In this document: piece by piece, positions 1,737 through 14,214 of the stretch
Numbering within the stretch: position 1 is the stretch's first letter
Layout: each line of letters starts with the position of its first letter
Origin: Candidatus Micrarchaeia archaeon
GTDB taxonomy: Archaea; Micrarchaeota; Micrarchaeia; Micrarchaeales; CABMGC01
Assembly (NCBI GenBank): GCA_049976845.1
Contig: JBMFHL010000001.1
Location: 1 to 64,000, forward strand
Length of the DNA: 64,000 nt
Reading direction: 5' to 3'
The notes under the pieces: model-generated
What the model was told of the DNA's origin: nothing
What the model saw: only the letters and a program-made list of their open reading frames with translations
Database searches by the model: none
Position numbers and translations under genes: made by a program

Positions 1737-2093
1737 ATGCTTAACATGTACTTCATTATTTTTGCCTTTGCGCTCTTCTCTATTTTAGTGCCGCTGGCAA
1801 TGGTGCTTGCGAATAAGCTTATTGGAATGGAAGAGGAGCATAATGCTGTGAAGGATTCTAATTACGAGAGCGCTGAGAATAGCATAGGGGAAAACACCAA
1901 TGTCATGAGCGAATATTTCCATTTTCTTACTATATTTGTTGCTTTCGAGATAGCAGGCATAGTTGTTATATTATGGTCTATAACAGCAAGGAGCATAGGG
2001 TTCATGCAGAATATTTACGCAATTATTATATTCATATTTTCTATTATACTTGCATTTATGAGCATAGGGATTGCTAAAAAGAGGTGGAGGTAG
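1737..2093 (+). CDS. nuoA: complex I-like subunit A
   Basis: Three TM segments and a K.S.YES loop motif; first gene of the operon. ATG at 1737 or 1746 preferred over the TTG at 1680. Confidence 0.85.
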   Translation: MLNMYFIIFAFALFSILVPLAMVLANKLIGMEEEHNAVKDSNYESAENSIGENTNVMSEYFHFLTIFVAFEIAGIVVILWSITARSIGFMQNIYAIIIFIFSIILAFMSIGIAKKRWR

Positions 2094-2653
2094 TGGATGG
2101 GAGTAGTGAGAGATTTATCAATGCAAAAAAAGAGATGGAGCAGCTTGTAGTAGATTCGATGAAGAACTACAAAGCGCCAACAGGAGCTTTTTTCACCAAC
2201 TTGTCAAAGGCTACCAAGGCTATTTCCGGAGGCATGGTAAAATGGTCAAGGAAGAACTCGCTATGGCCCATGCAATTTGGTCTAGCATGCTGCGCTATGG
2301 AGCTTATGGACTTTGGCTCAGCCAGGATAGATGCGGAGAGAAAAGGTTATCTGCTTTTCAGGGGTTCTCCGAGGCAATGCGATGTCATGATTGTTGCAGG
2401 CTGGGTTACCAAGGCGGTTGCGCCTGAGATAAAAAGGCTCTACGAGCAAATGTCGAAACCAAGATACGTAGTAGCATATGGAGAATGCGCTACAAGCGGA
2501 GGACCCTGGTGGCAGAGTTATAATATAATAAAAGGCATAGATCAGATTCTGCCTGTAGATGTGTATGTTGCGGGATGCCCTCCAAAACCAGAAAATTTGT
2601 TTGCGGCCCTTATGAAGCTGCAAAAGAAGGTAGGTGGTGAGATTGAAGGTTGA
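2084..2653 (+). CDS. nuoB: complex I-like subunit B (N2 Fe-S cluster)
   Basis: FGLACCAMEL, SPRQCD, GECATSGG and VDVYVAGCPPKPE motifs. Confidence 0.95.
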   Translation: MEVVDGSSERFINAKKEMEQLVVDSMKNYKAPTGAFFTNLSKATKAISGGMVKWSRKNSLWPMQFGLACCAMELMDFGSARIDAERKGYLLFRGSPRQCDVMIVAGWVTKAVAPEIKRLYEQMSKPRYVVAYGECATSGGPWWQSYNIIKGIDQILPVDVYVAGCPPKPENLFAALMKLQKKVGGEIEG

Positions 2654-3011
2654 AAGGGAAAAGTTGCTCGATACAATTAAGAATGCAAAAGACTCTGGAC
2701 TAAATTATTTGATTAAGATTACTGCTGTGGATTATGGAGATCATGAAGAGGTAATCTACTTTCTTATGGACCTGGAAAAGAATAAGGAAGAGAATATAAG
2801 GGTAGATATTAAGAGTGGTGATTTGTGGATTCCTACAATAATAGACATACTCAAATCCGCAGACTGGTACGAGAGAGAAATGTCTGAGATGTTCGGCATA
2901 GATATAAGGGGCAGGGAAATGAAAAGGCTGCTTCTTGAAAAGTGGGATGGCGTTGATGCGCCTATGAAAAAGGGCTTTGCCTGGGGAGAGAAATACAAAA
3001 GCAGCGAGTGA
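2634..3011 (+). CDS. nuoC: complex I-like subunit C (short form)
   Basis: ITAVDY, ADWYEREMSEMFGI, RLLL and PMKK motifs. Confidence 0.92.
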   Translation: MVRLKVEREKLLDTIKNAKDSGLNYLIKITAVDYGDHEEVIYFLMDLEKNKEENIRVDIKSGDLWIPTIIDILKSADWYEREMSEMFGIDIRGREMKRLLLEKWDGVDAPMKKGFAWGEKYKSSE

Positions 3012-3015
3012 GTTT

Positions 3016-4107
3016 ATGATCACTAGGATAAATATAGGGCCTATTCATCCAAGTACGCATGGTGTCTTGCGGCTTGTTGTTAGCCTTGACGGCGATACAA
3101 TAGTTGACGTTGAGCCACATATAGGTTTTCTACATAGGGGAGTGGAAAAACTTGTAGAGAATAGGATGTACATGCAGAGCCAAAATTACATGGAAAAATT
3201 AGACTATGCCTCGCCTCTTGCATATAGTGACCTGTATGTGGCGACTGTTGAGGAAGCTATGGGCATACATGTAAAGGAGAGAGCCAAGTATGTAAGAACT
3301 ATACTCCTTGAATTACAAAGGATAGCGAGCCACCTGCTTTGGCTCGGCACCATGTGCAATGACTTAGGCCAAATGTTTACAATGTTTATGTGGACTATGA
3401 AAGACAGAGACCTTATACTTAATTCGCTGCAGGATTTAACCGGCAGCAGGATGTTTTACGTCAACATGAGGCTTGGGGGTGTTGCAGAACCATTCCCCCC
3501 TTACTTCGAAGAGGGCTTAATGAAATTGCTTGATTACCTTGAGAAAAGGCTAAATGACTATGAGGTTTTCCTTGAAAAAAATCCTGTTTTCATTGAAAGG
3601 ACAAAAGGCGTTGGTGTGCTTGGCAGGAGAGAGGCTATCGAATTAGGGGTTACAGGACCTGTACTGAGGGCTTCTGGAGTGAATTTTGATATTAGGAGGA
3701 ATTTTTCATATTATGCTTATGAGAAGCTGCACTTCGTGACGCAGGTACAGACAAAAGGAGACAGCTATGCAAGATACAAAGTGAGGATGCTTGAGATGAA
3801 AGAGAGCATAAAGATAATAAGAGATGCATTCAAAAAAATGCCAGATGGCGACGAGCTTGGCTTGCCCATAAAACTTATTTCCCCTCCAATAAAGAACACA
3901 GAGGTTTTTGTGAAGAGGGAGCTGCCCAGGGGTGAAGGCTACATGTATATGCTTGCAGACAAGCAGAGGCCGTATAGGCTTGCGATCAGGGCACCCGCAT
4001 TTGTAAACCTATCTGCCCTCAGGTACCTGGCAAAAGGCAATAGGCTAGCGGATCTCTTTGCAATACTTGGAAGTTTGGATTTGGTGATGGCAGATGTTGA
4101 CAGGTAA
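3016..4107 (+). CDS. nuoD: complex I-like subunit D
   Basis: GPIHPSTHGVLRL, GFLHRGVEK, LDY, ELQRIASHL, ELPRGE and terminal ADVDR. No NiFe CxxC pairs. ATG at 3016 follows nuoC. Confidence 0.95.
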   Translation: MITRINIGPIHPSTHGVLRLVVSLDGDTIVDVEPHIGFLHRGVEKLVENRMYMQSQNYMEKLDYASPLAYSDLYVATVEEAMGIHVKERAKYVRTILLELQRIASHLLWLGTMCNDLGQMFTMFMWTMKDRDLILNSLQDLTGSRMFYVNMRLGGVAEPFPPYFEEGLMKLLDYLEKRLNDYEVFLEKNPVFIERTKGVGVLGRREAIELGVTGPVLRASGVNFDIRRNFSYYAYEKLHFVTQVQTKGDSYARYKVRMLEMKESIKIIRDAFKKMPDGDELGLPIKLISPPIKNTEVFVKRELPRGEGYMYMLADKQRPYRLAIRAPAFVNLSALRYLAKGNRLADLFAILGSLDLVMADVDR

Positions 4108-5083
4108 TCTTGGCCCAATAGGCATTCAACTTGCGCCTGTAGGCACTGTTACAGGAATAATCGAGTATATTATAATTATATTTGTATTCATAGCTACATT
4201 CGATTATATTTTTGGCTGGTTTGAAAGAAAGACCATAGCAAAAGCGCAATTTAGGCACGGGCCTACATATGTTGGTAAGTTTGGAATTCTGCAGAATCTG
4301 GCAGATATAGTAAAGCTAGTTGCAAAGGAGAACATAACCCCTAACAGTGCAGACAGACTGCTTTTCTCCACCGCCATGCCACTCTTGCTTGCACTTTTTA
4401 TATTTCTTGTTTTCCTAATACCTTTCTCTCCTAATTATGGGATTAGCATAAGCGTAGGGCTGCTTGCAATATTTGTAATGCTTTCGTTTGCTCCCCTTAT
4501 TGTGTTCGTAAGCGGCGTATCAAGCGGAAACAAATTTGCCGGTATAAGCGCACAAAGGTCAATAATAATGATGTTGAGCTATGAGATGCCGTTAATTGTA
4601 GTTATTGCGTCTGTGGCGTTGTTTGCAGGAAGCTTCAACTTAGGAAATATAGTAAACCTGCAGAGTAACGCGCCTTTCATTATCCTTATGCCTATTGGAT
4701 TTTTGGTTTTTTTTATTGCTATGCTTGCAGAGCTTGAAAGGCCGCCTTTTGACTTGAGGGAAGCTGACAGCGAACTTATTGCAGGGTGGCTTACTGATTT
4801 CGGATCGCCATATTACGCAATTGCACTCTTCGTTGATTATACTAGAATGTTCCTAGGCTCATTGCTGATATCCTTGCTTTTCTTAGGTGGATGGCTTGGA
4901 CCAGTGCTTCCGCCTGTGGTGTGGCTTCTTGCAAAGAGCTTTTTTGTGGCGTTTGTGATAGTGTTAGTAAGGGCAACTACAGTTAGAATGAGGCTTGATA
5001 GATTACTTAGGTTTGGGTGGTTCTGGCTCTTGCCTCTTGCTCTGGTTAATATTATATTAACCTTTTTATTGTTTGTAAGATAA
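4094..5083 (+). CDS. nuoH: complex I-like subunit H
   Basis: ERK..A..Q.R.GP, GILQ.LAD..KL..KE, SYE and AELERPPFDL.EA.SEL..G motifs. Confidence 0.95.
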   Translation: MLTGNLGPIGIQLAPVGTVTGIIEYIIIIFVFIATFDYIFGWFERKTIAKAQFRHGPTYVGKFGILQNLADIVKLVAKENITPNSADRLLFSTAMPLLLALFIFLVFLIPFSPNYGISISVGLLAIFVMLSFAPLIVFVSGVSSGNKFAGISAQRSIIMMLSYEMPLIVVIASVALFAGSFNLGNIVNLQSNAPFIILMPIGFLVFFIAMLAELERPPFDLREADSELIAGWLTDFGSPYYAIALFVDYTRMFLGSLLISLLFLGGWLGPVLPPVVWLLAKSFFVAFVIVLVRATTVRMRLDRLLRFGWFWLLPLALVNIILTFLLFVR

Positions 5084-5084
5084 G

Positions 5085-5456
5085 GTGTTTAATGTGATAG
5101 TTGAACCTTTCGTAAAAACTCTGCAAGGCCTCAAAGATAAAAGATTTACTACGAAGTTCCCTGAGGAGAGGGAGATCCAACCAGACAACTACAGAGGCAT
5201 ACATAGGCTTGACATAGAAACCTGCATAAGCTGCGGCGCTTGCGAGAGGATCTGCCCTAACAATACTATAACAATGGTTGACACAAACACACAGAAGGGT
5301 AGGAGGAAGACTCCGGAGATAAATTTAGATAGATGCCTTTTCTGTGGGCTCTGCGAAGAGGTGTGCCCAACACACTGCCTAACATTGACCAAAAATTACA
5401 AGCTTGAGGCGTTAGATAGGAGAGAATTCGTAAAGAGGCCTGAAGAATTGAAGTGA
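5085..5456 (+). CDS. nuoI: complex I-like subunit I (2x[4Fe-4S])
   Basis: CISCGACERICP and CLFCGLCEEVCP. Confidence 0.95.
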   Translation: MFNVIVEPFVKTLQGLKDKRFTTKFPEEREIQPDNYRGIHRLDIETCISCGACERICPNNTITMVDTNTQKGRRKTPEINLDRCLFCGLCEEVCPTHCLTLTKNYKLEALDRREFVKRPEELK

Positions 5457-5460
5457 CAAG

Positions 5461-5946
5461 ATGATTAGCGAGATTTTATTTGCATTGATTTCGCTGTTTA
5501 CGCTAGCTTCTGCAATAGTCATGCTTTTGTCCAGGAAATTGCTTAGGGCGGTGATCGCATTGGCGTTCGCCTTTACTGGCAGTTCGCTGATTTTCCTAAT
5601 GCTGCAACAGAGCATATTGGCGCTTCTCCAGCTCTTCGTATTTGTCGGTGGACTTTCAACTTACTTGATAGTAGCTGTAGCGGCAGAGCCTAAACTATCA
5701 AAGAATATGAATGCCAGGAATTTTGCTGCTGCTGCAACCGCCTTGCTTATTGCATTCTTTTTCATTGTATATAAATTTGCATATGCAAATACTACCACTA
5801 GCACGTATAGCGGCAGCTTTGTCACGAGTGCAGGAATTGCTATAGGGCACTACTACGCTCTTCTTGGCATAATAATTTTTCTTCCGTTTGCAAGCGCTAT
5901 TGGAAGCATACTCCTCATTAAGAGGCTTACGAAGGTGGTGGTCTAA
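5461..5946 (+). CDS. nuoJ: complex I-like subunit J
   Basis: Five TM segments, QLFVFVGG (compare QILVYVGA), and operon position. Confidence 0.85.
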   Translation: MISEILFALISLFTLASAIVMLLSRKLLRAVIALAFAFTGSSLIFLMLQQSILALLQLFVFVGGLSTYLIVAVAAEPKLSKNMNARNFAAAATALLIAFFFIVYKFAYANTTTSTYSGSFVTSAGIAIGHYYALLGIIIFLPFASAIGSILLIKRLTKVVV

Positions 5947-6254
5947 TGCTGCAGTTGGTTTATTTTATGTATTTGAGCTTCGCACTGCTCGCGGTAGGGC
6001 TTGCAGGTATAGTAGCTAGCAAGCATATTATTTTGATAGTGCTTTCTGTAGAGCTTTTGTTTGTCTCAAGCATAATTTTGCTTGCCGCTTCTGCTTCATA
6101 TGCAAGCACCGCAAATGGCGATGCTGCAGCAATGATAATCGCAGTTTGGGCTGCTGCTGCCTCTGACGTGATTGTATTGATTGCATTATACATGGTAATA
6201 AAGTCGAGGGGAGCCAAATTTGACGTGACATTGTTCTCTGAATTGAAGGGATAA
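5946..6254 (+). CDS. nuoK: complex I-like subunit K
   Basis: Three TM segments, LSVELL and terminal ELKG. Confidence 0.9.
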   Translation: MLQLVYFMYLSFALLAVGLAGIVASKHIILIVLSVELLFVSSIILLAASASYASTANGDAAAMIIAVWAAAASDVIVLIALYMVIKSRGAKFDVTLFSELKG

Positions 6255-6255
6255 T

Positions 6256-7995
6256 ATGATAGCTTTGTTCATTATAGTGCCTTTCTTGCTTGCTCTGCTA
6301 CTTTCAGTGTTCCTAAAAAGCGGAAAGTATATTGCATATGTTGCAATAGCTGCAAGTATTGCCAGCCTTGCGATGCTACCTTTCATACAAAACGGAGAAT
6401 ATAGCGTAAGCTGGTTCTCTGTGAATGGGTTCAGCTTCAATATCTCCACTTATATAGCACAGTCAAATATTATGCTGCTTGCGATAGTGCTCCTGCTTGC
6501 TCCCATTATATTCCTTTACTCTCTAGGTTTTATCTCTGTGCCAAGTGAGAGGAAGCGTTTTTACATAGAGATGCTGAGCTTCACGGTAGCAATGCTTGCC
6601 TTTGCAATTGCTGGGAACTTCATAGTCTTCTTTATAGCCTGGGAATTCCTCAGCGTGATGAGCTATTTATTAATAGGCTTCTGGTATAAGAATCCAAAAG
6701 CTGCAAGAGCTGCAAGGAAAGCCATAACTATTGTATTTATTGGAGACCTTTGCATTCTTGGTTCCCTTATCCTGTTTTGGAATGCATATAATTCGCTAGA
6801 ATTTTCAAATATAATATATGAAGCTTCTTCAAATCCTACTACAATACCTATAGTGGCTGTAATGCTCTTGATTGTTGCAATCTTTACTAAGTCTGCACAG
6901 TTCCCCTTCCATGAATGGCTGCCTGATGCAATGGAAGGCCCAGTGCCTGTATCTGCTTTCTTGCATTCTGCGACAATGGTAAAGGCAGGAGTATTTGCCG
7001 CGATAGTATTATACCCTATCTTTTTCTATTCGAAGAGCCTTCAGTACTTCCTTGTGATAGGTATTTTGACCGCAATTATTGCAACAACTAATGCAATGAG
7101 AGAGAGGCATATAAAGAAGGTATTGGCATACTCTACAATCCAAGAGCTCGCACTGATGCTTGCAAGCATAGGGGTAGGTGCAGTTGCAGCTGCCTTATAC
7201 TTCTTCTTCGCACAGGCTTTCTATAAAGCACTGCTCTTCTTCAGCTCTGGAGTTATGATGAAGTCTAACAACAATACTGATTTATATTCTATTTATGGAC
7301 TCAAACATAACAAGCTGATATATATAACAACACTTTTTGGAGTCCTATCCTTAGCAGGATTTATTCCTTTTGACGGGTTCTTCTCTTCTGTTGTTGTTGG
7401 AGAGTCTTTCACAAGCAATATTCTTGCTTATGCAATAATTAGCATTATAGGTCTTGCTACAAGTTTCTATATATTCAGGTGGTTCTTTTTGTCTTCGAAG
7501 AGCACCAAGGACAGCAGCATTAACCTTTCATATGATTCACAGCCACACAGCATGGTTATTTCGATGGCTATCCTTGCTGCATTTACAATTATTGCTTCGC
7601 TTGTATTCTTCTTTACTAGTATTTACAGTAGTTTAAGGATTAGCTTCATTGATTCTGCTGTAGAAATTGCCATGTTTTCCATAGGTTTTGCTGCAAGCTA
7701 TTTTGTTTACGTAAAAGGTAGAACATATTTTAATCCTAAGCGTTTTGAAGGCATATTGCATAACAGCATTGTTACAAATGCGTTTTATCTTTATACGGCA
7801 ATTTTCATTTACAAAATAGCCGAAGGGGTTGATTTGTTTGATCTTTACCTTAATGACCTGTTTGATTGGTTTGGCCATCTGGCTATGAAATTGGGGATCG
7901 GGGCAAATGATATTACAAACGGCCAAATTAGCCTTTACGCGGCTGCGCTGATATTGGGATTTGTTATCCTTGGGATTATAATGGTGATTACATAA
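6256..7995 (+). CDS. nuoL: complex I-like antiporter subunit L
   Basis: AWE, SYLLIGFW, KSAQFPFHEWLPDAMEGP.PVSAFLHSATMVKAG and KKVLAYST motifs. Confidence 0.95.
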   Translation: MIALFIIVPFLLALLLSVFLKSGKYIAYVAIAASIASLAMLPFIQNGEYSVSWFSVNGFSFNISTYIAQSNIMLLAIVLLLAPIIFLYSLGFISVPSERKRFYIEMLSFTVAMLAFAIAGNFIVFFIAWEFLSVMSYLLIGFWYKNPKAARAARKAITIVFIGDLCILGSLILFWNAYNSLEFSNIIYEASSNPTTIPIVAVMLLIVAIFTKSAQFPFHEWLPDAMEGPVPVSAFLHSATMVKAGVFAAIVLYPIFFYSKSLQYFLVIGILTAIIATTNAMRERHIKKVLAYSTIQELALMLASIGVGAVAAALYFFFAQAFYKALLFFSSGVMMKSNNNTDLYSIYGLKHNKLIYITTLFGVLSLAGFIPFDGFFSSVVVGESFTSNILAYAIISIIGLATSFYIFRWFFLSSKSTKDSSINLSYDSQPHSMVISMAILAAFTIIASLVFFFTSIYSSLRISFIDSAVEIAMFSIGFAASYFVYVKGRTYFNPKRFEGILHNSIVTNAFYLYTAIFIYKIAEGVDLFDLYLNDLFDWFGHLAMKLGIGANDITNGQISLYAAALILGFVILGIIMVIT

Positions 7996-8000
7996 TACCT

Positions 8001-9401
8001 TTGCTGATGTTACTTGTGCTGCTGCCTGTATTCGGGGCTCTTTTAGCTTTAGCGATTAGGAGAATGCCTGCAATTATAAGTACTTCGACAGCCATTGTTG
8101 AACTAATCGTATTGTTGGCTGCCTTATATTACTTCGTTAGATATGGGTCGTTGCAGAATTCTTACAGTTATATTTTGCCGCTAGGGATAAACTTTGGGTT
8201 TGCTCTTACTAATATAACGTTTGTATTTGCAATGCTTACAGCGATTGTTTTTTTGGCAGCCGCAATTGCAAATATCGTTTTCATAAAGGAGGAGAAGCTT
8301 GGTTACAATTCTTTGTTTATGCTTGCTGAAAGCGCAGTTTTTGGAATCTTCCTTTCTGAAAATCTATTCTTACTTTATCTATTCTGGGACACTGCAATTA
8401 TAATATTCTTTTTCATGCTCTTCCATTTTGGAGGCTATGACAGGAGGTATGCTGCAGTGAAATTTGTATTGTATTCCATATTCTCCAGCGCTATGCTGCT
8501 GATAGGTATAATGATGATCTACTTTTACATGCCTGTGCATACATTTAACATTTCGCAGGTAATCAGCTCAGCAGGATTGATTCCCCATACCGAGCAGCTT
8601 GAAGTACTTATAGTATTGATGCTTGCATTCATGGTGAAACTGCCAGTATTTCCATTTCATTCTTGGGCTCCCGATGCCTATTCAGAAGCGCCTGCTGGAA
8701 GTGCTATGTTATTGTCTGGAGTCCTGTCAAAATTTGGGGCATATGGAATGCTGCTTCTGTTTATTTCGTTGCCAATAGCAAAGACTTATTCAATTTATTT
8801 CGCAGAGCTTTTTGCTTTCTCTGCTATATACGCTGCCTTCGTTGCAATGAATCAAAAGGAATTAAGGAGGATGCTTTCGTATTTGAGCATCAGCGAAATG
8901 GGAATTATTGCTTTTGGGATCTCCTCATTAAACTCTGTAGGAATCGCGGGAGCATTAGTGGGAATTTTTGGGCATGCTCTTATAATAGCGCTTCTGTTCC
9001 TGCTTGCTTTCTCTATAGAAAAGGCCTTTGGAACTTCGATATTGGCAAGGCTCAAGGGCTTGCTTAATGGTTCCAAGCTTATCGGTTATGTATTTATTTT
9101 TGGAGTGCTTGCCACACTGGGTCTTCCGCTTACAAGCGGATTCATATCAGACTTGCTGATACTGCTAGGTAGTGCAAAAAGCTTCGGACTGATTATACTG
9201 TTACCACTATTTGCCATACTAATAAATGGTGCGTACCTCTTCTGGGTCTATGAGAGGGTCTTCACAGCAAAAGAGGAACCACGTATATATGAAAAGCAGA
9301 ATGGCTACATTTATGCGGCAATGGCATTATTGCTTGTATTTATTATAATTATAGGTATACTTCCTTCTATAATCTTAAACAATCTTGGTGCTATAATATG
9401 A
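8001..9401 (+). CDS. nuoM: complex I-like antiporter subunit M
   Basis: YAAVKFVLY, VKLPVFPFHSWAPDAYSEAP, LSKFGAYG and LGLPLTSGF motifs. Confidence 0.93.
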   Translation: MLMLLVLLPVFGALLALAIRRMPAIISTSTAIVELIVLLAALYYFVRYGSLQNSYSYILPLGINFGFALTNITFVFAMLTAIVFLAAAIANIVFIKEEKLGYNSLFMLAESAVFGIFLSENLFLLYLFWDTAIIIFFFMLFHFGGYDRRYAAVKFVLYSIFSSAMLLIGIMMIYFYMPVHTFNISQVISSAGLIPHTEQLEVLIVLMLAFMVKLPVFPFHSWAPDAYSEAPAGSAMLLSGVLSKFGAYGMLLLFISLPIAKTYSIYFAELFAFSAIYAAFVAMNQKELRRMLSYLSISEMGIIAFGISSLNSVGIAGALVGIFGHALIIALLFLLAFSIEKAFGTSILARLKGLLNGSKLIGYVFIFGVLATLGLPLTSGFISDLLILLGSAKSFGLIILLPLFAILINGAYLFWVYERVFTAKEEPRIYEKQNGYIYAAMALLLVFIIIIGILPSIILNNLGAII

Positions 9402-10765
9402 TAAGTTTAGTTTATATTTTCATCTTGCTCTTTGCCATTCTGGCACTAGGAAGCATGCTTGCTAGGATATTAAACAGAAAGGCACTGCTGTATGCTTTTT
9501 CTGTGCTTACTATTGCTGCAATTGCAGCCACTGCTGCAGATTTCATTTTTTCAGGCTCATTTGGAATTTATCTTGGTATTTTGTCGCTAAACCCATTTTC
9601 TTCTTTAATGATTATTCTTTTTGCTGCCGCAACAATACTTATTCTCTCTTACTCCCTAGAAGAAAGTACTTACGAGGACTTTGCGCTTCTTCTTAGTTTT
9701 GACTTTATAGGAGCCAGTGTTGTGGCAATGGCAAATTCTTTAATTACTATCTTCCTTGGGCTGGAACTTGTGGCAATTCCAACTACAATAATGATTCTTC
9801 TTTCGAGAAAAAGCCTTGAGGCTGGAATAAAGTACTTTGTAATAACTGCAATTGCTTCATCCCTCTTGGCTTTTGGAATTGCGCTTGTTTACCTTTTTTC
9901 TGGAAATTTGCTTTTGTTATCGCAGCCTTATAGTGTGGGGCTTGCCTTTGCTTTGGTTATGTTCATAGCTGCAATTGGCATAGAAGCCTCTGTATTCCCT
10001 TTCAATCTTTGGGTCCCAGATGTATACCAAGGCTCCCCTTCTTTTGTAACATCGGTGCTTGGAGGAATAAACAAAAAAGTAGGCCTTATAGCTTTGGTAG
10101 AAGTTGTGCTGATCATGTTTGGAACGTATACCATAGTAGCATACCTAGTTGCTGTACTTGCAATTCTTACGATGTTTTATGGGAATCTTGGTGCATTAAG
10201 GCAACAGAACATTAAGAGGATGCTTGCGTATTCTTCAATATCACAAGCAGGCTATATTATGATTGGCTTAGCAACCTTAACTTCTTATGGAATCTCTGCG
10301 AGCATATTTCAAATATTTGCCCACATCTTTATGTTCGTTGGTGCATTCGCAATAGTCTCTTGGCTTGAGGGCAAAAACAGAGTAAATATCAATGAATATG
10401 TTGGCTTGAATAGTGAAAACAGGCTTGCTGCATTAGGTCTGAGCATTTTTCTTTTATCTATGGCAGGCATACCGTTTACTGTGGGTTTCGTAGGGAAGTT
10501 TCTCCTCTTTTCAAGCGCGATATATGCAAACATGGCATGGCTTGCTATTCTAGGCATAATAAGCACTGTTATTTCTATCTATTATTATTCGCGTGTGATA
10601 ATTGCAATCTATACTAATAGAGCGGGCACAGTATATATTCACATGCATAGGAATGTGGCTGCTGTTGTTGCAGCATGTATAGTTATAGTGATTGCATTTG
10701 GCATATACCCGGGACCGGCAATCCATGCTGTTGAAAGCGCTGGCACTTATCTAATGCATGGCTAA
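9398..10765 (+). CDS. nuoN: complex I-like antiporter subunit N
   Basis: GLEL, EAGIKYF, PF.LWVPDVYQGSP, KRMLAYSSISQAGY and AGIPFTVGFVGKF motifs. Confidence 0.93.
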   Translation: MISLVYIFILLFAILALGSMLARILNRKALLYAFSVLTIAAIAATAADFIFSGSFGIYLGILSLNPFSSLMIILFAAATILILSYSLEESTYEDFALLLSFDFIGASVVAMANSLITIFLGLELVAIPTTIMILLSRKSLEAGIKYFVITAIASSLLAFGIALVYLFSGNLLLLSQPYSVGLAFALVMFIAAIGIEASVFPFNLWVPDVYQGSPSFVTSVLGGINKKVGLIALVEVVLIMFGTYTIVAYLVAVLAILTMFYGNLGALRQQNIKRMLAYSSISQAGYIMIGLATLTSYGISASIFQIFAHIFMFVGAFAIVSWLEGKNRVNINEYVGLNSENRLAALGLSIFLLSMAGIPFTVGFVGKFLLFSSAIYANMAWLAILGIISTVISIYYYSRVIIAIYTNRAGTVYIHMHRNVAAVVAACIVIVIAFGIYPGPAIHAVESAGTYLMHG

Positions 10766-10775
10766 ATCTAGAACT

Positions 10776-13571
10776 TTATCTCTGACCATATGTTGACAAG
10801 AAGGAGAGGTACCTTCCTACCGCCATGCTTGGCGCAGAAGGTCTTGTCTTTTCTATCAGGTCTGTTAGATCCGACATTGTAATTTTAAGCTCTTTATTTG
10901 AATCCACACTTTTTTCCAATGCATTCATCTTAGCCTGTCTGCAGAGGTTCGCTATATCGGCACCTGTAAATCCTGGAGTCATTGAGGCAAGCACAGCAAA
11001 ATTAATATTTGGTTCTAATGGTGCTTTCTTTAGGTACTGCTCGAATAAGCTTGCCCTGTCTTGTTCATTTGGAGGAGGAATAAATATGAGCTTGTCGAAT
11101 CGGCCTGCCCTTAGTAGCGCAGAGTCTAGCGCATCTGGCCTGTTTGTCGCACCTACAAGCACTATATTATACTTTGATTTCAGACCATCAAGTTCCTCGA
11201 GAAACTCACCTGTTAAGCTCACGCTAAGCTCACTTGCATTTTCTCTTGCAGGAACTACCGCATCTATCTCATCGATAAATATTATAGACGGTGCATTCTC
11301 CTTTGCTCTATTGAATGCCTCTTTTATCTTTAATATTGACAAATTGGTGCCTGCTTTACTTATCTCTGAACCTGAAAGAAGTATCATATGCACATCCCCT
11401 ATCTCTGAAGCAACTGCACGCATGAGCATGGTTTTGCCGGTGCCCGGAGGCCCAAAGAGCAGTATGCCCCTTATGTTCTCTATGTCATATTTCTTGACAA
11501 GATCCGGATGCAGTATTGGTATCTCTACCGCTTCATATATTGCCTTCTTCGCTTCTTCAAGACCTACTACATCATCGAGAGATACTGTACTGGTATCTTT
11601 ATCTTCGCGCTCTGGATGCACCCTCCTTTCGTAATCAAGCTTGAATGTCGTATATTCTTCTATCTGACTCAGCGATGTTGAAGGTTTTGTAAGCTTTATT
11701 ATCCTTACCATATCGCCCATTGTTATTTGCAGGATTTTGTTCATTGAGCTTGCTTCTTCTGCGGTCTCTCGTGCAGCCTCATCACATACATTTTTAATGT
11801 CAGCGCCAGAATATCTTTCGGATATTTCTGCAAGCTTGTGATAATCAATATCTTCCACTACAGGAAGCTTGGAGAGGTAGTATCTGAAGATCTTCTCTCT
11901 GCCGCTTGCGTCTGGAAGCGGCATGTATATTATCTTATCGAATCTGCCAGGCCTCATTATGCTTGGATCTAATAGCTGTGGCGTGTTTGTTGCACCAACT
12001 ATGACTACGCCTTCTATCTTCTGGAAGCCGTCCATTTCGCTTAGCAGTGTAGATAGGATCTGCTTACCAGATTCTGACTCCTGTATCTCCCTGCTTCCTG
12101 CTATGCCATCAATCTCATCAAAGAACAACACGCATGGGGTATGCTTTTTGGCAGTGGCAAATATTCTTGAAAGAGTCTGAGCACTTTCCCCGGAGTATGG
12201 AGAGAGTATTGACGATGCTTTTACATAGAAGAATCCTGCCCTAATGTCATTGGCTAGAGCCCTCATTATCAGTGTTTTGCCAGTGCCTGGAGGCCCAAAG
12301 AGCAGTATACCTTTTGTTGGATTTATTCCGTATGCTCCGGACAGCTCACGGTGTTCTATTGGCGCAATTATTGCTTCCTTCAGCTCTGTTTTTGTTTCTT
12401 CGTAGTTTGCAACATCGTCAAGCGTTTCGTTCGTGCCACTTGTCAGATCCTCGAAGCCTTCACCAAAATGGGACCTGAAATCGCGCTTCATCACTTCGAG
12501 AGCCTTGATTACTGGCACATCATTAAACTCCAAGAACAATATTATAAGAGGAGTAACTAGAAAGCCTAGCAATGGGTAATAAACAAAGCTGTTTTTAGTT
12601 AGGTATGAAAGAATTATGTATGTGATAGGTATTATTATGCTAAAGAGGCTTGCTTCTGAGCCCTTGTATTTGGACCTGCTTTTTATTATATAATTGCTCA
12701 TTACGAATACCACTATTATCCAAATAACGAGTTGCACTATCGCGATGTTACCTTCTATTGCAAGTGGCAGCATTGCCAAATAGAAACTGGTAGGTATGCC
12801 CCCAGTTACCTTAAAACCAAAGAAATTATCTACTGAATTTGCCCATGCCGAACCTAAGGATGTTATGTTTGGCGCCGTCTTTGTTGGCATTAGGTATTGT
12901 GCATAGCTATTGGAGATTATAAACGAGTGGGCTAATGATGCGTTGAAGACTATACTGCCAGTATTTTGCATGTTCATTATGCCTGAGAGCATAATTACAA
13001 TTAAAACTACTACAGCTACGCTTATAATGCCCCTCTTTGCCCCTACAAGCAGAACCATGAAGACAAGTGCAGGTATCTCAATAAAATAGCCCAAATAAGA
13101 GAATGGGAGGGCAATAAGCAGATAAGTCAATGTTATTATACGATAGTGCTTGAAGCCCAATAGGAGAGAGACGCTTACGAAAATTGTGAAGAGCCATGCA
13201 AGCAGAGGAGCTTGATATATAAACATTGGTAATGTTTCAAAAAACAGAGTCATAAGCCCAAAGAGAGGATGTATCATTGTTACAATAAAAGTAAGCACCA
13301 GCAATGGTATTATTATTATTGGAGGTAAAAACGGGAGGGCGATGGAGACGCTTGCTAATGTGAAAGTAGTTGCGATTGCATCAGGAAAATTTGGATGTGA
13401 AGTAAAATCTTTCAGTATGTCTTTGAGCCAGTAAGTCGAGAGAGGCAAGCTCCTTTTAATTGATACTTCGCTCTTTTGCTTTGGCCTTTTACCTAGTACT
13501 ACACTTTTCTTTTTCTTTTTGTTCTGGGTACTGGGCGCCGCCTTAGTAACCGTGCTCTGACCATCGGGCAT
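10776..13571 (-). CDS. polytopic membrane protein fused to two Cdc48/VAT-type AAA+ ATPase domains
   Basis: Roughly aa 65-350 is multi-pass hydrophobic. Then two copies each of GILLFGPPGTGKT, Walker B (FFDEID, FIDEID), ATN and the SRH (RPGRFD, RAGRFD). Confidence 0.92.
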   Translation of the reverse strand: MPDGQSTVTKAAPSTQNKKKKKSVVLGKRPKQKSEVSIKRSLPLSTYWLKDILKDFTSHPNFPDAIATTFTLASVSIALPFLPPIIIIPLLVLTFIVTMIHPLFGLMTLFFETLPMFIYQAPLLAWLFTIFVSVSLLLGFKHYRIITLTYLLIALPFSYLGYFIEIPALVFMVLLVGAKRGIISVAVVVLIVIMLSGIMNMQNTGSIVFNASLAHSFIISNSYAQYLMPTKTAPNITSLGSAWANSVDNFFGFKVTGGIPTSFYLAMLPLAIEGNIAIVQLVIWIIVVFVMSNYIIKSRSKYKGSEASLFSIIIPITYIILSYLTKNSFVYYPLLGFLVTPLIILFLEFNDVPVIKALEVMKRDFRSHFGEGFEDLTSGTNETLDDVANYEETKTELKEAIIAPIEHRELSGAYGINPTKGILLFGPPGTGKTLIMRALANDIRAGFFYVKASSILSPYSGESAQTLSRIFATAKKHTPCVLFFDEIDGIAGSREIQESESGKQILSTLLSEMDGFQKIEGVVIVGATNTPQLLDPSIMRPGRFDKIIYMPLPDASGREKIFRYYLSKLPVVEDIDYHKLAEISERYSGADIKNVCDEAARETAEEASSMNKILQITMGDMVRIIKLTKPSTSLSQIEEYTTFKLDYERRVHPEREDKDTSTVSLDDVVGLEEAKKAIYEAVEIPILHPDLVKKYDIENIRGILLFGPPGTGKTMLMRAVASEIGDVHMILLSGSEISKAGTNLSILKIKEAFNRAKENAPSIIFIDEIDAVVPARENASELSVSLTGEFLEELDGLKSKYNIVLVGATNRPDALDSALLRAGRFDKLIFIPPPNEQDRASLFEQYLKKAPLEPNINFAVLASMTPGFTGADIANLCRQAKMNALEKSVDSNKELKITMSDLTDLIEKTRPSAPSMAVGRYLSFLSTYGQR

Positions 13572-13626: not shown

Positions 13627-13737
13627 CCCGTTGTAGCTCAATGGCTAGAGCGGCCGGCTGTAGTTTGGAAGCTTTTGATTTGTAGAAGTTGTCAAAAGGA
13701 TACCGGCAGGTTGGGTGTTCGACTCACCCCAACGGGA
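13627..13737 (+). tRNA. tRNA-Tyr(GTA) with a 38-nt intron at 37/38 (13664-13701)
   Basis: Acceptor CCCGTTG/CAACGGG+A with the archaeal C1-G72 pair; anticodon stem GCCGG/CCGGC with CT-GTA-G; T arm GGGTG-TTCGACT-CACCC. Confidence 0.93.
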
Positions 13738-13752
13738 ATTTATGGTGATTAT

Positions 13753-14025
13753 GTGTTTGTTGTATTGTTAGGCTACTTTGCCGGCACACTTACTACTATG
13801 GCAGTGTTGCCCGAGATCTTCAGGCTTAGGAAAACAAAAAGAGCTGGAGAGCTTTCATATGCATGGCTTTCGATTGTATTTATAGGCCTTATCTCTTGGT
13901 CCATTTATGGATTTTTTATAAACAGCATGCCTTTAATTGTGCTTAGCTTATTACAATCCCTGCTTTATTTTATACTTATAGCAATGAAAGCTTCATATAC
14001 TAAGGGATTTAAATCTCAGCGCTAA
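13753..14025 (+). CDS. SemiSWEET/PQ-loop (MtN3-like) 3-TM transporter
   Basis: G..AG.LTT.A.LP(E)....KTK.A..LS...W..YG pattern. GTG start follows a GGTGA SD. The ORF-track extension upstream overlaps tRNA-Tyr. Confidence 0.8.
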   Translation: MFVVLLGYFAGTLTTMAVLPEIFRLRKTKRAGELSYAWLSIVFIGLISWSIYGFFINSMPLIVLSLLQSLLYFILIAMKASYTKGFKSQR

Positions 14026-14037
14026 ATATAATTGGAT

Positions 14038-14110
14038 GCCTCGGTAGTGTAGTGGTCCAGCATACGAGCCTGTCACGCTTGTGACCCGGGTTCGAATCCC
14101 GGCCGAGGCG
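14038..14110 (+). tRNA. tRNA-Asp(GTC)
   Basis: Acceptor GCCTCGG/CCGAGGC+G; anticodon arm CGAGC-CTGTCAC-GCTTG; T arm CCGGG-TTCGAAT-CCCGG. Confidence 0.96.
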
Positions 14111-14214
14111 CTTTCCTATTAATTTCCCTACAGCATAGGTAAAAGAGCGCAAGTTTTTGTTATTAGCAAAAATATTTAAGAATCCAACTTGCCAACTATT
14201 AATCACGTGGTTTC

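Follow-up and report, generated by a model that had tools for sequence, protein, structure and literature searches.

The locus described here raises the question of what task is served by a protein that carries a many-helix membrane domain and a two-ring AAA motor in one chain. The gene lies on the minus strand at positions 10776..13571 of the window, i.e., the whole stretch of 64,000 nucleotides that was analyzed (contig JBMFHL010000001.1, positions 1 to 64,000, of the Candidatus Micrarchaeia archaeon assembly GCA_049976845.1). The list of open reading frames and the translation give a single open frame with an ATG start which, stop codon included, encodes a membrane-integral tandem AAA ATPase of 931 aa. 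An earlier note on this sequence had described the product as a basic tail, a membrane domain, and two AAA+ modules, and had proposed it as a candidate membrane translocase or dislocase. The anatomy is borne out, and the joining of a membrane domain to a two-ring motor in one chain is near certain. It probably serves as a motor for pulling proteins at the cell membrane. The best explanation that we can offer is a membrane-integral type-II (two-ring) classical AAA unfoldase specific to Micrarchaeota, its function as a dislocase being put forward tentatively, at a little less than an even chance.

Four parts follow one another from the N- to the C-terminus of the protein, namely a basic tail, a membrane domain of ten helices, a flexible linker, and a pair of complete classical AAA modules; all features given below are on the minus strand. 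The tail (aa 1-41; 13449..13571) contains 12 lysine or arginine residues against two aspartate or glutamate residues and is predicted to be cytoplasmic and disordered, with a predicted local distance difference test score (pLDDT) <50 in the full-length AlphaFold2 model and with a length and sequence that differ across relatives. The membrane domain (aa 44-349; 12525..13442) is predicted from models, hydropathy, and a count of positive charges to be an amphipathic helix followed by ten transmembrane helices, with both ends inside the cell (N-in/C-in). The linker (aa 350-390; 12402..12524) includes a helix (357-374) with a conserved FG pair, F369 and G370, which are invariant or nearly so among relatives; its residues 360-380 are flexible, again with pLDDT <50 in the full-length model. 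The first AAA module, D1 (aa 391-650; 11622..12401), is predicted to be the membrane-proximal ring, and the second, D2 (aa 662-931; 10779..11588), runs to a conserved C-terminal helix (...GRYLSFLSTYGQR).

Kyte-Doolittle hydropathy showed many hydrophobic segments across aa 65-355, and where the earlier note had estimated eight to ten, two AlphaFold2 models arrive at ten membrane helices between aa 62 and 349. One model is of the full-length protein and was built from 33 full-length relatives (pLDDT 77.3; predicted template modelling score, pTM, 0.41; low-confidence stretches 1-41, 360-380, and 654-661), the other is of the N-domain and was built from 40 N-domains (pLDDT 88.4, pTM 0.85), and both have the same layout. 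Amphipathic helix 44-57 is followed by membrane helices 62-78, 84-100, 102-120, 122-157, 161-176, and 178-199, then by a 70-residue loop with short helices, by membrane helices 274-297, 303-325, and 332-349, and finally by the linker helix; helix 122-157 was counted as two crossings because of the sequence KHYR in its middle. Over the 40 aligned sequences, lysine plus arginine amount to 14.6 per 72 residues in the predicted cytoplasmic loops versus 3.0 per 92 in the predicted outside loops. The big loop (aa 200-272; 12756..12974), which is poor in these residues, carries the sequons NAS (210) and NIT (235), and at least one sequon is present in this loop in 24 of the 40 sequences. The charge bias and the sequons over these relatives support the modelled ten-helix, N-in/C-in topology with the big loop outside, which is also where the earlier note had expected a polar loop with NAS and NIT to lie.

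In the alignment of the 40 N-domains (alignment A2), ten of which come from distant families, few residues of the membrane domain are invariant throughout the class, and most of these are proline or glycine. The exceptions are Q120 and W126, which belong to a YQ(A/S)PxxxW motif situated in the outer turn between helices 3 and 4 (YQAPLLAW in the window, aa 119-126; 13194..13217). Further conserved positions are a G177-K-R turn inside, S196, QN at 202-203 outside, and W284. No conserved His/Asp/Cys set of the kind seen in intramembrane enzymes is present in the membrane domain across this alignment. A three-copy model of the domain (A2 residues 20-318) scored 0.00, which speaks neither for nor against contacts between the membrane domains.

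The proposal in the earlier note depended on an N-domain without a match to any characterized family, and none was found by Pfam, by a profile against PDB sequences, or by Foldseek. Pfam has no family on aa 1 to about 380 of the protein, and over the 40 N-domains no family was matched by more than two sequences, such matches being scattered and all sub-threshold. A profile of the 40 N-domains gave 0 matches to PDB sequences at E up to 10, Foldseek of the membrane domain against the PDB gave a best E of 0.62 with a template modelling (TM) score no higher than 0.22, and a search of the ESM Atlas by features returned no usable match for the domain. By these sequence and fold comparisons the membrane domain belongs to no described family.

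An exhaustive VIA-align search did, on the other hand, place S-components of energy-coupling factor (ECF) transporters in 12 of the top 15 rows. The best row was ThiT 3rlb_A (Z 9.3, root-mean-square deviation 3.8 Å, 151/176 residues), a Z below the level of about 13 at which the tool advises caution for helical bundles; chance alone often takes helical models to Z of about 14. The other S-component rows were RibU, PanT, FolT, BioY, and CbiM, and the set spans Z 6.1-9.3. All of them fall on model residues of about 100-327, which correspond to protein residues 137-364 (12480..13163) and define a six-helix bundle weakly like ECF S-components and VUT transporters. An independent structure search of the ESM Atlas pointed to Vut_1, ECF_trnsprt, and MASE9 clusters (TM 0.33-0.40 by query), and the first four helices found only generic four-helix look-alikes, namely membrane modules of kinases and GGDEF proteins. 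No S-component or Vut_1 Pfam family was matched by any of the 40 N-domains at E up to 1, a result with which a distant relationship would still be compatible. Because the best Z lies under the chance level for helical models, we take the S-component likeness as a weak lead from model comparison and not as membership. Coupling of the ECF type was considered and rejected: in the genome of the window (731 kb, 52 contigs, 90% complete) EcfT (PF02361) had no match at E up to 0.01, and ECF S-component families were likewise not found.

The AAA part is much easier to place. Pfam recognizes two PF00004 stretches in it (E 2.7e-78 in total, the best on 422-552) and two AAA_lid_3 domains, so that each module has its own lid, and the features of classical AAA proteins (Walker A, Walker B, sensor-1 Asn, the Arg fingers of the second region of homology, and lid) are all present. 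Invariant residues in 33 sequences are G426-T433, D485-E486, N529, R540, and R543 in D1 and G707-K713, D767-E768, N810, and R824 in D2; the GPPGTGKT Walker A (12273-12296 in D1 and 11430-11453 in D2), the DE Walker B (D485-E486 and D767-E768), the sensor Asn, and the Arg fingers (RPGRFD in D1, RAGRFD in D2) are thus unchanged across these relatives in both modules, in accordance with the earlier note. The solved structures nearest to aa 381-931 are VAT (5g4g, E 1.4e-112), p97, Cdc48, AFG2/SPATA5, and NVL/Rix7, and the AAA part is collinear with yeast Cdc48 (residues 4-514 versus 213-718).

The two rings differ in pore loop 1, which was aligned to the canonical Cdc48 of the same genome, whose loop reads SKFVGESE in both rings. 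In D1 the loop SPYSGES (aa 457-463; 12183..12203; SPYSGESA with the next residue) has Tyr459 at the canonical aromatic position, and an aromatic residue occupies this position in 26/33 relatives (23 Y, 3 F). In D2 the loop SKAGTNLS (aa 738-745; 11337..11360) is non-canonical, and the aromatic position is taken by Gly in 31 of 33 sequences, by Ser in one, and by Tyr in one, within a family pattern of its own, K-x-G-x-[ED]. Inteins are found in three long relatives (P0054, P0056, and P0046), and two of these proteins also have LAGLIDADG endonuclease domains. For P0054 and P0056 the insertion point lies within the D1 pore loop, exactly after the residue aligned with E462 (SPYSGE|S), and the intein ends in His-Asn, followed by Ser. 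As inteins typically home into conserved, essential sites, their presence here adds weight to a functionally critical D1 pore loop. The suggestion that D1 does the pulling gains some support from these inteins, from the aromatic residue in most D1 loops, and from the Gly in nearly all D2 loops. It should be noted that the third intein-bearing protein, P0046 (1912 aa), has two intein regions.

The protein does not fall into any of the curated families with which it shares these features. NCBIfam TIGR01243 (CDC48) ranks first, with 460.1 bits against a cut-off of 802.65, its best stretch being profile positions 449-731 only; TIGR01241 (FtsH) reaches 405.7 against a cut-off of 600, on the AAA part only; and the scores for PAN and CdvC are likewise below their cut-offs. 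The Lon_C serine protease domain, which follows a membrane-anchored AAA+ module in archaeal LonB, is matched in this genome on contigs C37 and C14 and not at the AAA gene. The double-psi barrel and beta-clam N-domain of Cdc48 is lacking, none of the 40 N-domains matching a Cdc48 N family at E up to 1, and the AlphaFold2 models of the N-domain are all-helical and membrane-embedded, unlike that of Cdc48. There is no HExxH motif anywhere in the sequence, and the C-terminus, ...STYGQR (family ending ...YGxR, consensus ...GRYLxFLSxYGxR, with Y921 and F924 invariant), is not an HbYX motif, whereas the canonical Cdc48 of the same genome ends in ...SMYR. The earlier note, which had excluded a Cdc48 N-domain, an HExxH protease, and an HbYX end and had contrasted the two pore loops, therefore stands on all of these points. 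From these scores and motifs the protein is a classical AAA ATPase outside every curated subfamily scored.

A maximum-likelihood tree of 45 AAA modules, midpoint-rooted and including four canonical Cdc48 proteins of Micrarchaeota and no other archaea, separated the family from Cdc48. Its D1 modules form a clan of their own (TM_D1, support 98/96), as do its D2 modules (TM_D2, 99/99), and D1 and D2 of the four Cdc48 proteins group together (100/99). As D1 and D2 form their own clans, this small tree tentatively argues for an old, separate two-ring lineage and not for a recent Cdc48 copy with a swapped N-domain. The genome itself encodes a canonical Cdc48 of 718 aa with an HbYX end, so the membrane double AAA is an extra paralogue; it also encodes proteasome alpha and beta subunits and a LonB-like protein, and a role as replacement for a missing LonB or proteasome was accordingly rejected.

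The distribution of the gene was addressed by searching relatives of increasing distance. A word-based search with the N-domain returned 35 proteins, all with AAA, of which 33 measure 890-958 aa and the other two are on contigs of 2.6 and 3.4 kb. The named relatives are Candidatus Micrarchaeales or Micrarchaeia, in line with the DPANN origin suspected in the earlier note; NCBI's present name for the phylum is Microcaldota. Of 401 genomes sampled from the phylum, 313 have an N-domain match, as do 159/188 high-quality ones, nearly always once per genome and in open frames of about 900-990 aa. These tallies take in two unpublished genomes, G198 and G029, both matching, and become 311/399 without them. 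By family, the domain is found in 79/82 genomes of f1 (to which the window belongs), 88/94 of f2, 9/9 of f7, 69/76 of f9, 7/7 of f16, 5/5 of f28, and 5/6 of f12, and in none of the sampled genomes of f10 (0/7), f11 (0/21), f15 (0/8), f17 (0/4), and f18 (0/4). Ten genomes from ten distant families all carry the gene, in frames of 903-1076 aa, and two Walker A motifs follow the N-domain in 39 of 40 loci at the DNA level. One locus, L035 (G195:C51:528-4409) from a distant family, has a 1076-aa frame with one Walker A pattern match in the DNA covered and may hold an insertion or a variant P-loop.

A profile search of 1.84 billion representative proteins gave only 75 matches at E up to 0.001, of which 22 are at least 800 aa long. 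Among them P0109 (973 aa) is a divergent member (profile-profile probability 97%, E 3.9e-11). Of three shorter matches that were inspected, two, P0071 and P0073, are fragments ending inside the D1 linker, which led us to reject them as stand-alone membrane domains, and the third, P0110, is a different protein. P0110 (684 aa) weakly resembles the membrane domain over its first half (E 2.3e-4), a YQGGGAW turn being part of the match; a long coiled-coil-like region follows, there is neither an AAA domain nor a Pfam family, and the protein may show the membrane module in another context. From these searches the membrane domain is lineage-restricted, and every complete gene joins it to the motor. 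The fusion, being conserved across relatives, is not an assembly chimera, a possibility that the earlier note had named as refuting its proposal, and its conservation in hundreds of genomes is a feature far beyond chance.

The closest comparison is with VAT, Cdc48, and p97. They share with our protein the tandem classical AAA modules with lids, the collinear order of D1 and D2, and two catalytically complete rings, as reflected in the match to VAT 5g4g. The differences are the ten-helix membrane domain in place of the double-psi-barrel N-domain, the missing HbYX end, the low TIGR01243 score, the D2 loop without an aromatic residue, and the separate clans in the tree. FtsH likewise has an N-terminal membrane anchor that leads through a linker to a classical AAA ring beneath the membrane, but it has two transmembrane helices, one ring, and the M41 HExxH protease, whereas ten helices, two rings, and no HExxH are found here; by analogy it is the likeliest functional counterpart for membrane-protein extraction. 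NSF offers the pattern of a D1 with a working pore loop and a degenerate D2, but is soluble, depends on SNAP adaptors, and has a catalytically weak D2, whereas both rings here keep Walker B and the Arg fingers. Msp1/ATAD1, Bcs1, and Ycf2-FtsHi are, like our protein, membrane-tethered AAA rings that move polypeptides out of or across a membrane, but they are single rings with one or a few transmembrane helices, or multi-subunit complexes. With ECF S-components and VUT (YhhQ) the likeness is confined to the last six helices (aa 137-364), which superpose at a Z under the caution level for helical bundles and have the same N-in/C-in six-helix topology; there is no sequence match, a loop of about 70 residues lies outside between bundle helices 3 and 4, four extra helices stand in front, the genome has no EcfT, and the ATPase is AAA and not ABC. 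To our knowledge all characterized type-II AAA unfoldases are soluble and reach membranes via adaptors, those AAA machines known to be tethered to a membrane are single rings with one or two helices, and none of these has a ten-helix domain on a type-II motor. Our literature searches found no description of such a fusion, and a membrane domain joined to a double AAA is not mentioned in the excerpts of PMC5498576, PMC6393860, and PMC5070193 that were available. The excerpt of PMC5070193 does describe plant Spaf-like proteins, which are Cdc48-family tandem AAA proteins with a membrane anchor and without an N-domain; unlike the protein studied here, which has an N-terminal polytopic domain, they have a single C-terminal transmembrane region and occur in core eudicots.

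Taken by analogy, these comparisons would be reconciled by a protein that works like a Cdc48/VAT-type unfoldase and is placed like FtsH while scoring as a member of neither; that it acts as a dislocase on this pattern seems to us nearly as probable as the alternatives combined. Cdc48 and VAT form hexamers through which substrate is threaded in the direction from D1 to D2, and FtsH and Msp1 are membrane-tethered rings that extract membrane proteins; the hexamer and the extraction steps proposed below are modelled on this established behavior. A hexamer would have 60 transmembrane helices in the cytoplasmic membrane, with the D1 ring, which adjoins the membrane by chain connectivity, just beneath the bilayer. 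The flexible linker of about 40 residues would leave a gap for substrate entry; with residues 360-380 flexible, this resembles the gap through which substrates enter FtsH. The Tyr459 pore loops of D1 might seize a membrane or envelope protein by a tail or loop exposed to the cytoplasm, and ATP hydrolysis would then draw this substrate in from the membrane side, first through D1 and next through D2, leading to extraction and unfolding, with D2 adding force or stability. The extracted protein could be turned over by the proteasome or LonB, or its removal could serve to remodel a membrane complex. The outward-facing YQxPxxxW motif and the glycosylatable loop may recognize a substrate or ligand, from outside or within the outer leaflet; as both the invariant motif and the loop face outwards, the membrane domain is likely to be more than an anchor.

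Several observations weigh against a membrane-integral dislocase whose D1 ring would draw out membrane or envelope proteins, a reading that we hold with slightly less than even confidence. The conserved residues of the membrane domain face outside, which is compatible with a ligand-related role as well as with substrate recognition, and the fold look-alikes of the domain are small-molecule binders and sensor modules. In 7/33 relatives the D1 aromatic residue is missing, which is awkward for strictly canonical threading, and the C-terminus is not HbYX, which gives no indication that the protein docks directly on the 20S proteasome. With LonB the cell already has a membrane quality-control machine. 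In five of five high-quality genomes of f10, f11, f15, and f17 the domain was not found even by profile, and only the canonical Cdc48 locus was. Finally, in a set of 21 neighborhoods (20 fetched loci and the window), no same-strand protein-coding gene in the +1 or -1 position is common to at least five loci, and no substrate, adaptor, or partner gene was found.

The same evidence bears on other explanations. The functions proposed in the earlier note, an ERAD-like extractor, an importer from the host, or a remodelling machine at contact sites, are likewise hypotheses. The six membrane domains might form a conduit aligned with the D1 pore through which polypeptides are pulled into the cell, as in the chloroplast TIC-Ycf2/FtsHi import motor, or might act as a retrotranslocon comparable to Hrd1 with Cdc48 in endoplasmic-reticulum-associated degradation; a ring of ten-helix domains would feed the D1 pore through its center or through lateral gates, and cargo, perhaps proteins of the host or the envelope, would be chosen by the YQxPxxxW site. 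The position of D1 next to the membrane, the D1 to D2 polarity, and the conserved outward loop and motif would fit, and a symbiont reduced to a 731-kb genome must acquire much from its host; one VIA-align row was even HRD1, at a Z of 5.4 that is within noise. However, there is no sign of a pore or of contact between the membrane domains, few conserved polar residues lie inside the bilayer, none of the 21 loci has a partner or a secretion-type neighbor, and the gene was not found in some lineages of the class, so that we regard a single-chain importer or retrotranslocon as unlikely. It is similarly improbable that the membrane domain is a ligand-binding module, an S-component/VUT-like bundle which binds a small molecule outside and either gates the AAA motor or is moved by it, a role that the earlier note had not considered. 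This is what the S-component rows, covering most of each target, the independent Atlas neighbors, and the sensor-like first four helices would suggest, and the invariant Q120 and W126 with the QN at 202-203 do lie at the outer leaflet; but the best Z is under the caution level, the Foldseek E is poor, no S-component family is matched by any N-domain, the 90%-complete genome has shown neither EcfT nor S-component, and AAA motors of the classical clade act on polypeptides.

A role of the membrane domain as anchor only, localizing an NSF- or Cdc48-like disassembly motor that acts on peripheral or soluble complexes in division, contact sites, or envelope assembly, also seems doubtful. It would be in keeping with the NSF-like restriction of the canonical pore loop to D1, with the lack of an HbYX end, and with the precedent of the Spaf-like proteins anchored by a C-terminal transmembrane region without an N-domain (PMC5070193, excerpt). 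Against it, one or two helices are enough for anchoring, whereas the domain kept here, in genomes of 0.6-1.5 Mb, has 300 residues, some of them invariant throughout the class, and a compact fold that is modelled with confidence. Very improbable, and largely refuted by phyletic mismatch, is an assembly or quality-control factor for the adjoining complex I-like Nuo complex. The nuo operon (about 2000-10765 on the plus strand, with NuoH at 4169-5062) ends 11 bases from the stop of the AAA gene, and it lies convergent and directly downstream in nine of the 21 loci, the window included; but the genes are on opposite strands, and the AAA gene is present in families mostly without NuoH. In tallies which again take in G198 and G029, NuoH was found in 195/401 genomes overall, in 79/82 of f1 and 85/94 of f2, and rarely elsewhere in the class, with 2/9 in f7, 16/76 in f9, 0/7 in f16, and 0/6 in f12 versus 9/9, 69/76, 7/7, and 5/6 for the AAA gene. 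The adjacency is on this account synteny and not a functional link.

When a phylum of ultra-small symbionts keeps, in most of its genomes, a single-copy gene for an undescribed polytopic domain on a two-ring motor, this points to a protein-handling step at the membrane which they cannot afford to lose. If the protein is indeed an extractor or importer, a single gene would offer a minimal model of the coupling of an AAA motor to a bilayer, and the protein might bear on how DPANN archaea maintain their envelope proteins or exchange them at host contacts. Were it a single-chain retrotranslocon or importer, one gene would stand for what eukaryotes achieve with Hrd1/Der1 plus Cdc48, or chloroplasts with TIC plus Ycf2/FtsHi.

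Analysis of the remaining AAA genes and of the surroundings produced some further observations. The genome carries a 489-aa single-ring AAA protein (G000:C5:1803-3272, minus strand) with the pore loop DMYAGNTE and the C-terminus ...FALYIF, which may be PAN-like or something else and has a very long branch in the module tree. The proteins of the genome with a C-terminal transmembrane helix had generic basic tails only, and no common end-tag was seen among them. No surface-protein gene was a conserved neighbor among the 21 loci, in all of which (21/21) the AAA gene is a single open frame. Upstream of the AAA gene in the window is a tRNA-Asp (GTC) gene (14038-14111, plus strand), and a trace of it in the shorter flanks of 22/40 relatives indicates that the position is syntenic. 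Between the two genes, and divergent from the AAA gene, a small membrane protein of 116 aa is encoded at 13675-14025 on the plus strand, and a similar open reading frame is present in the upstream flanks of 8/40 relatives.

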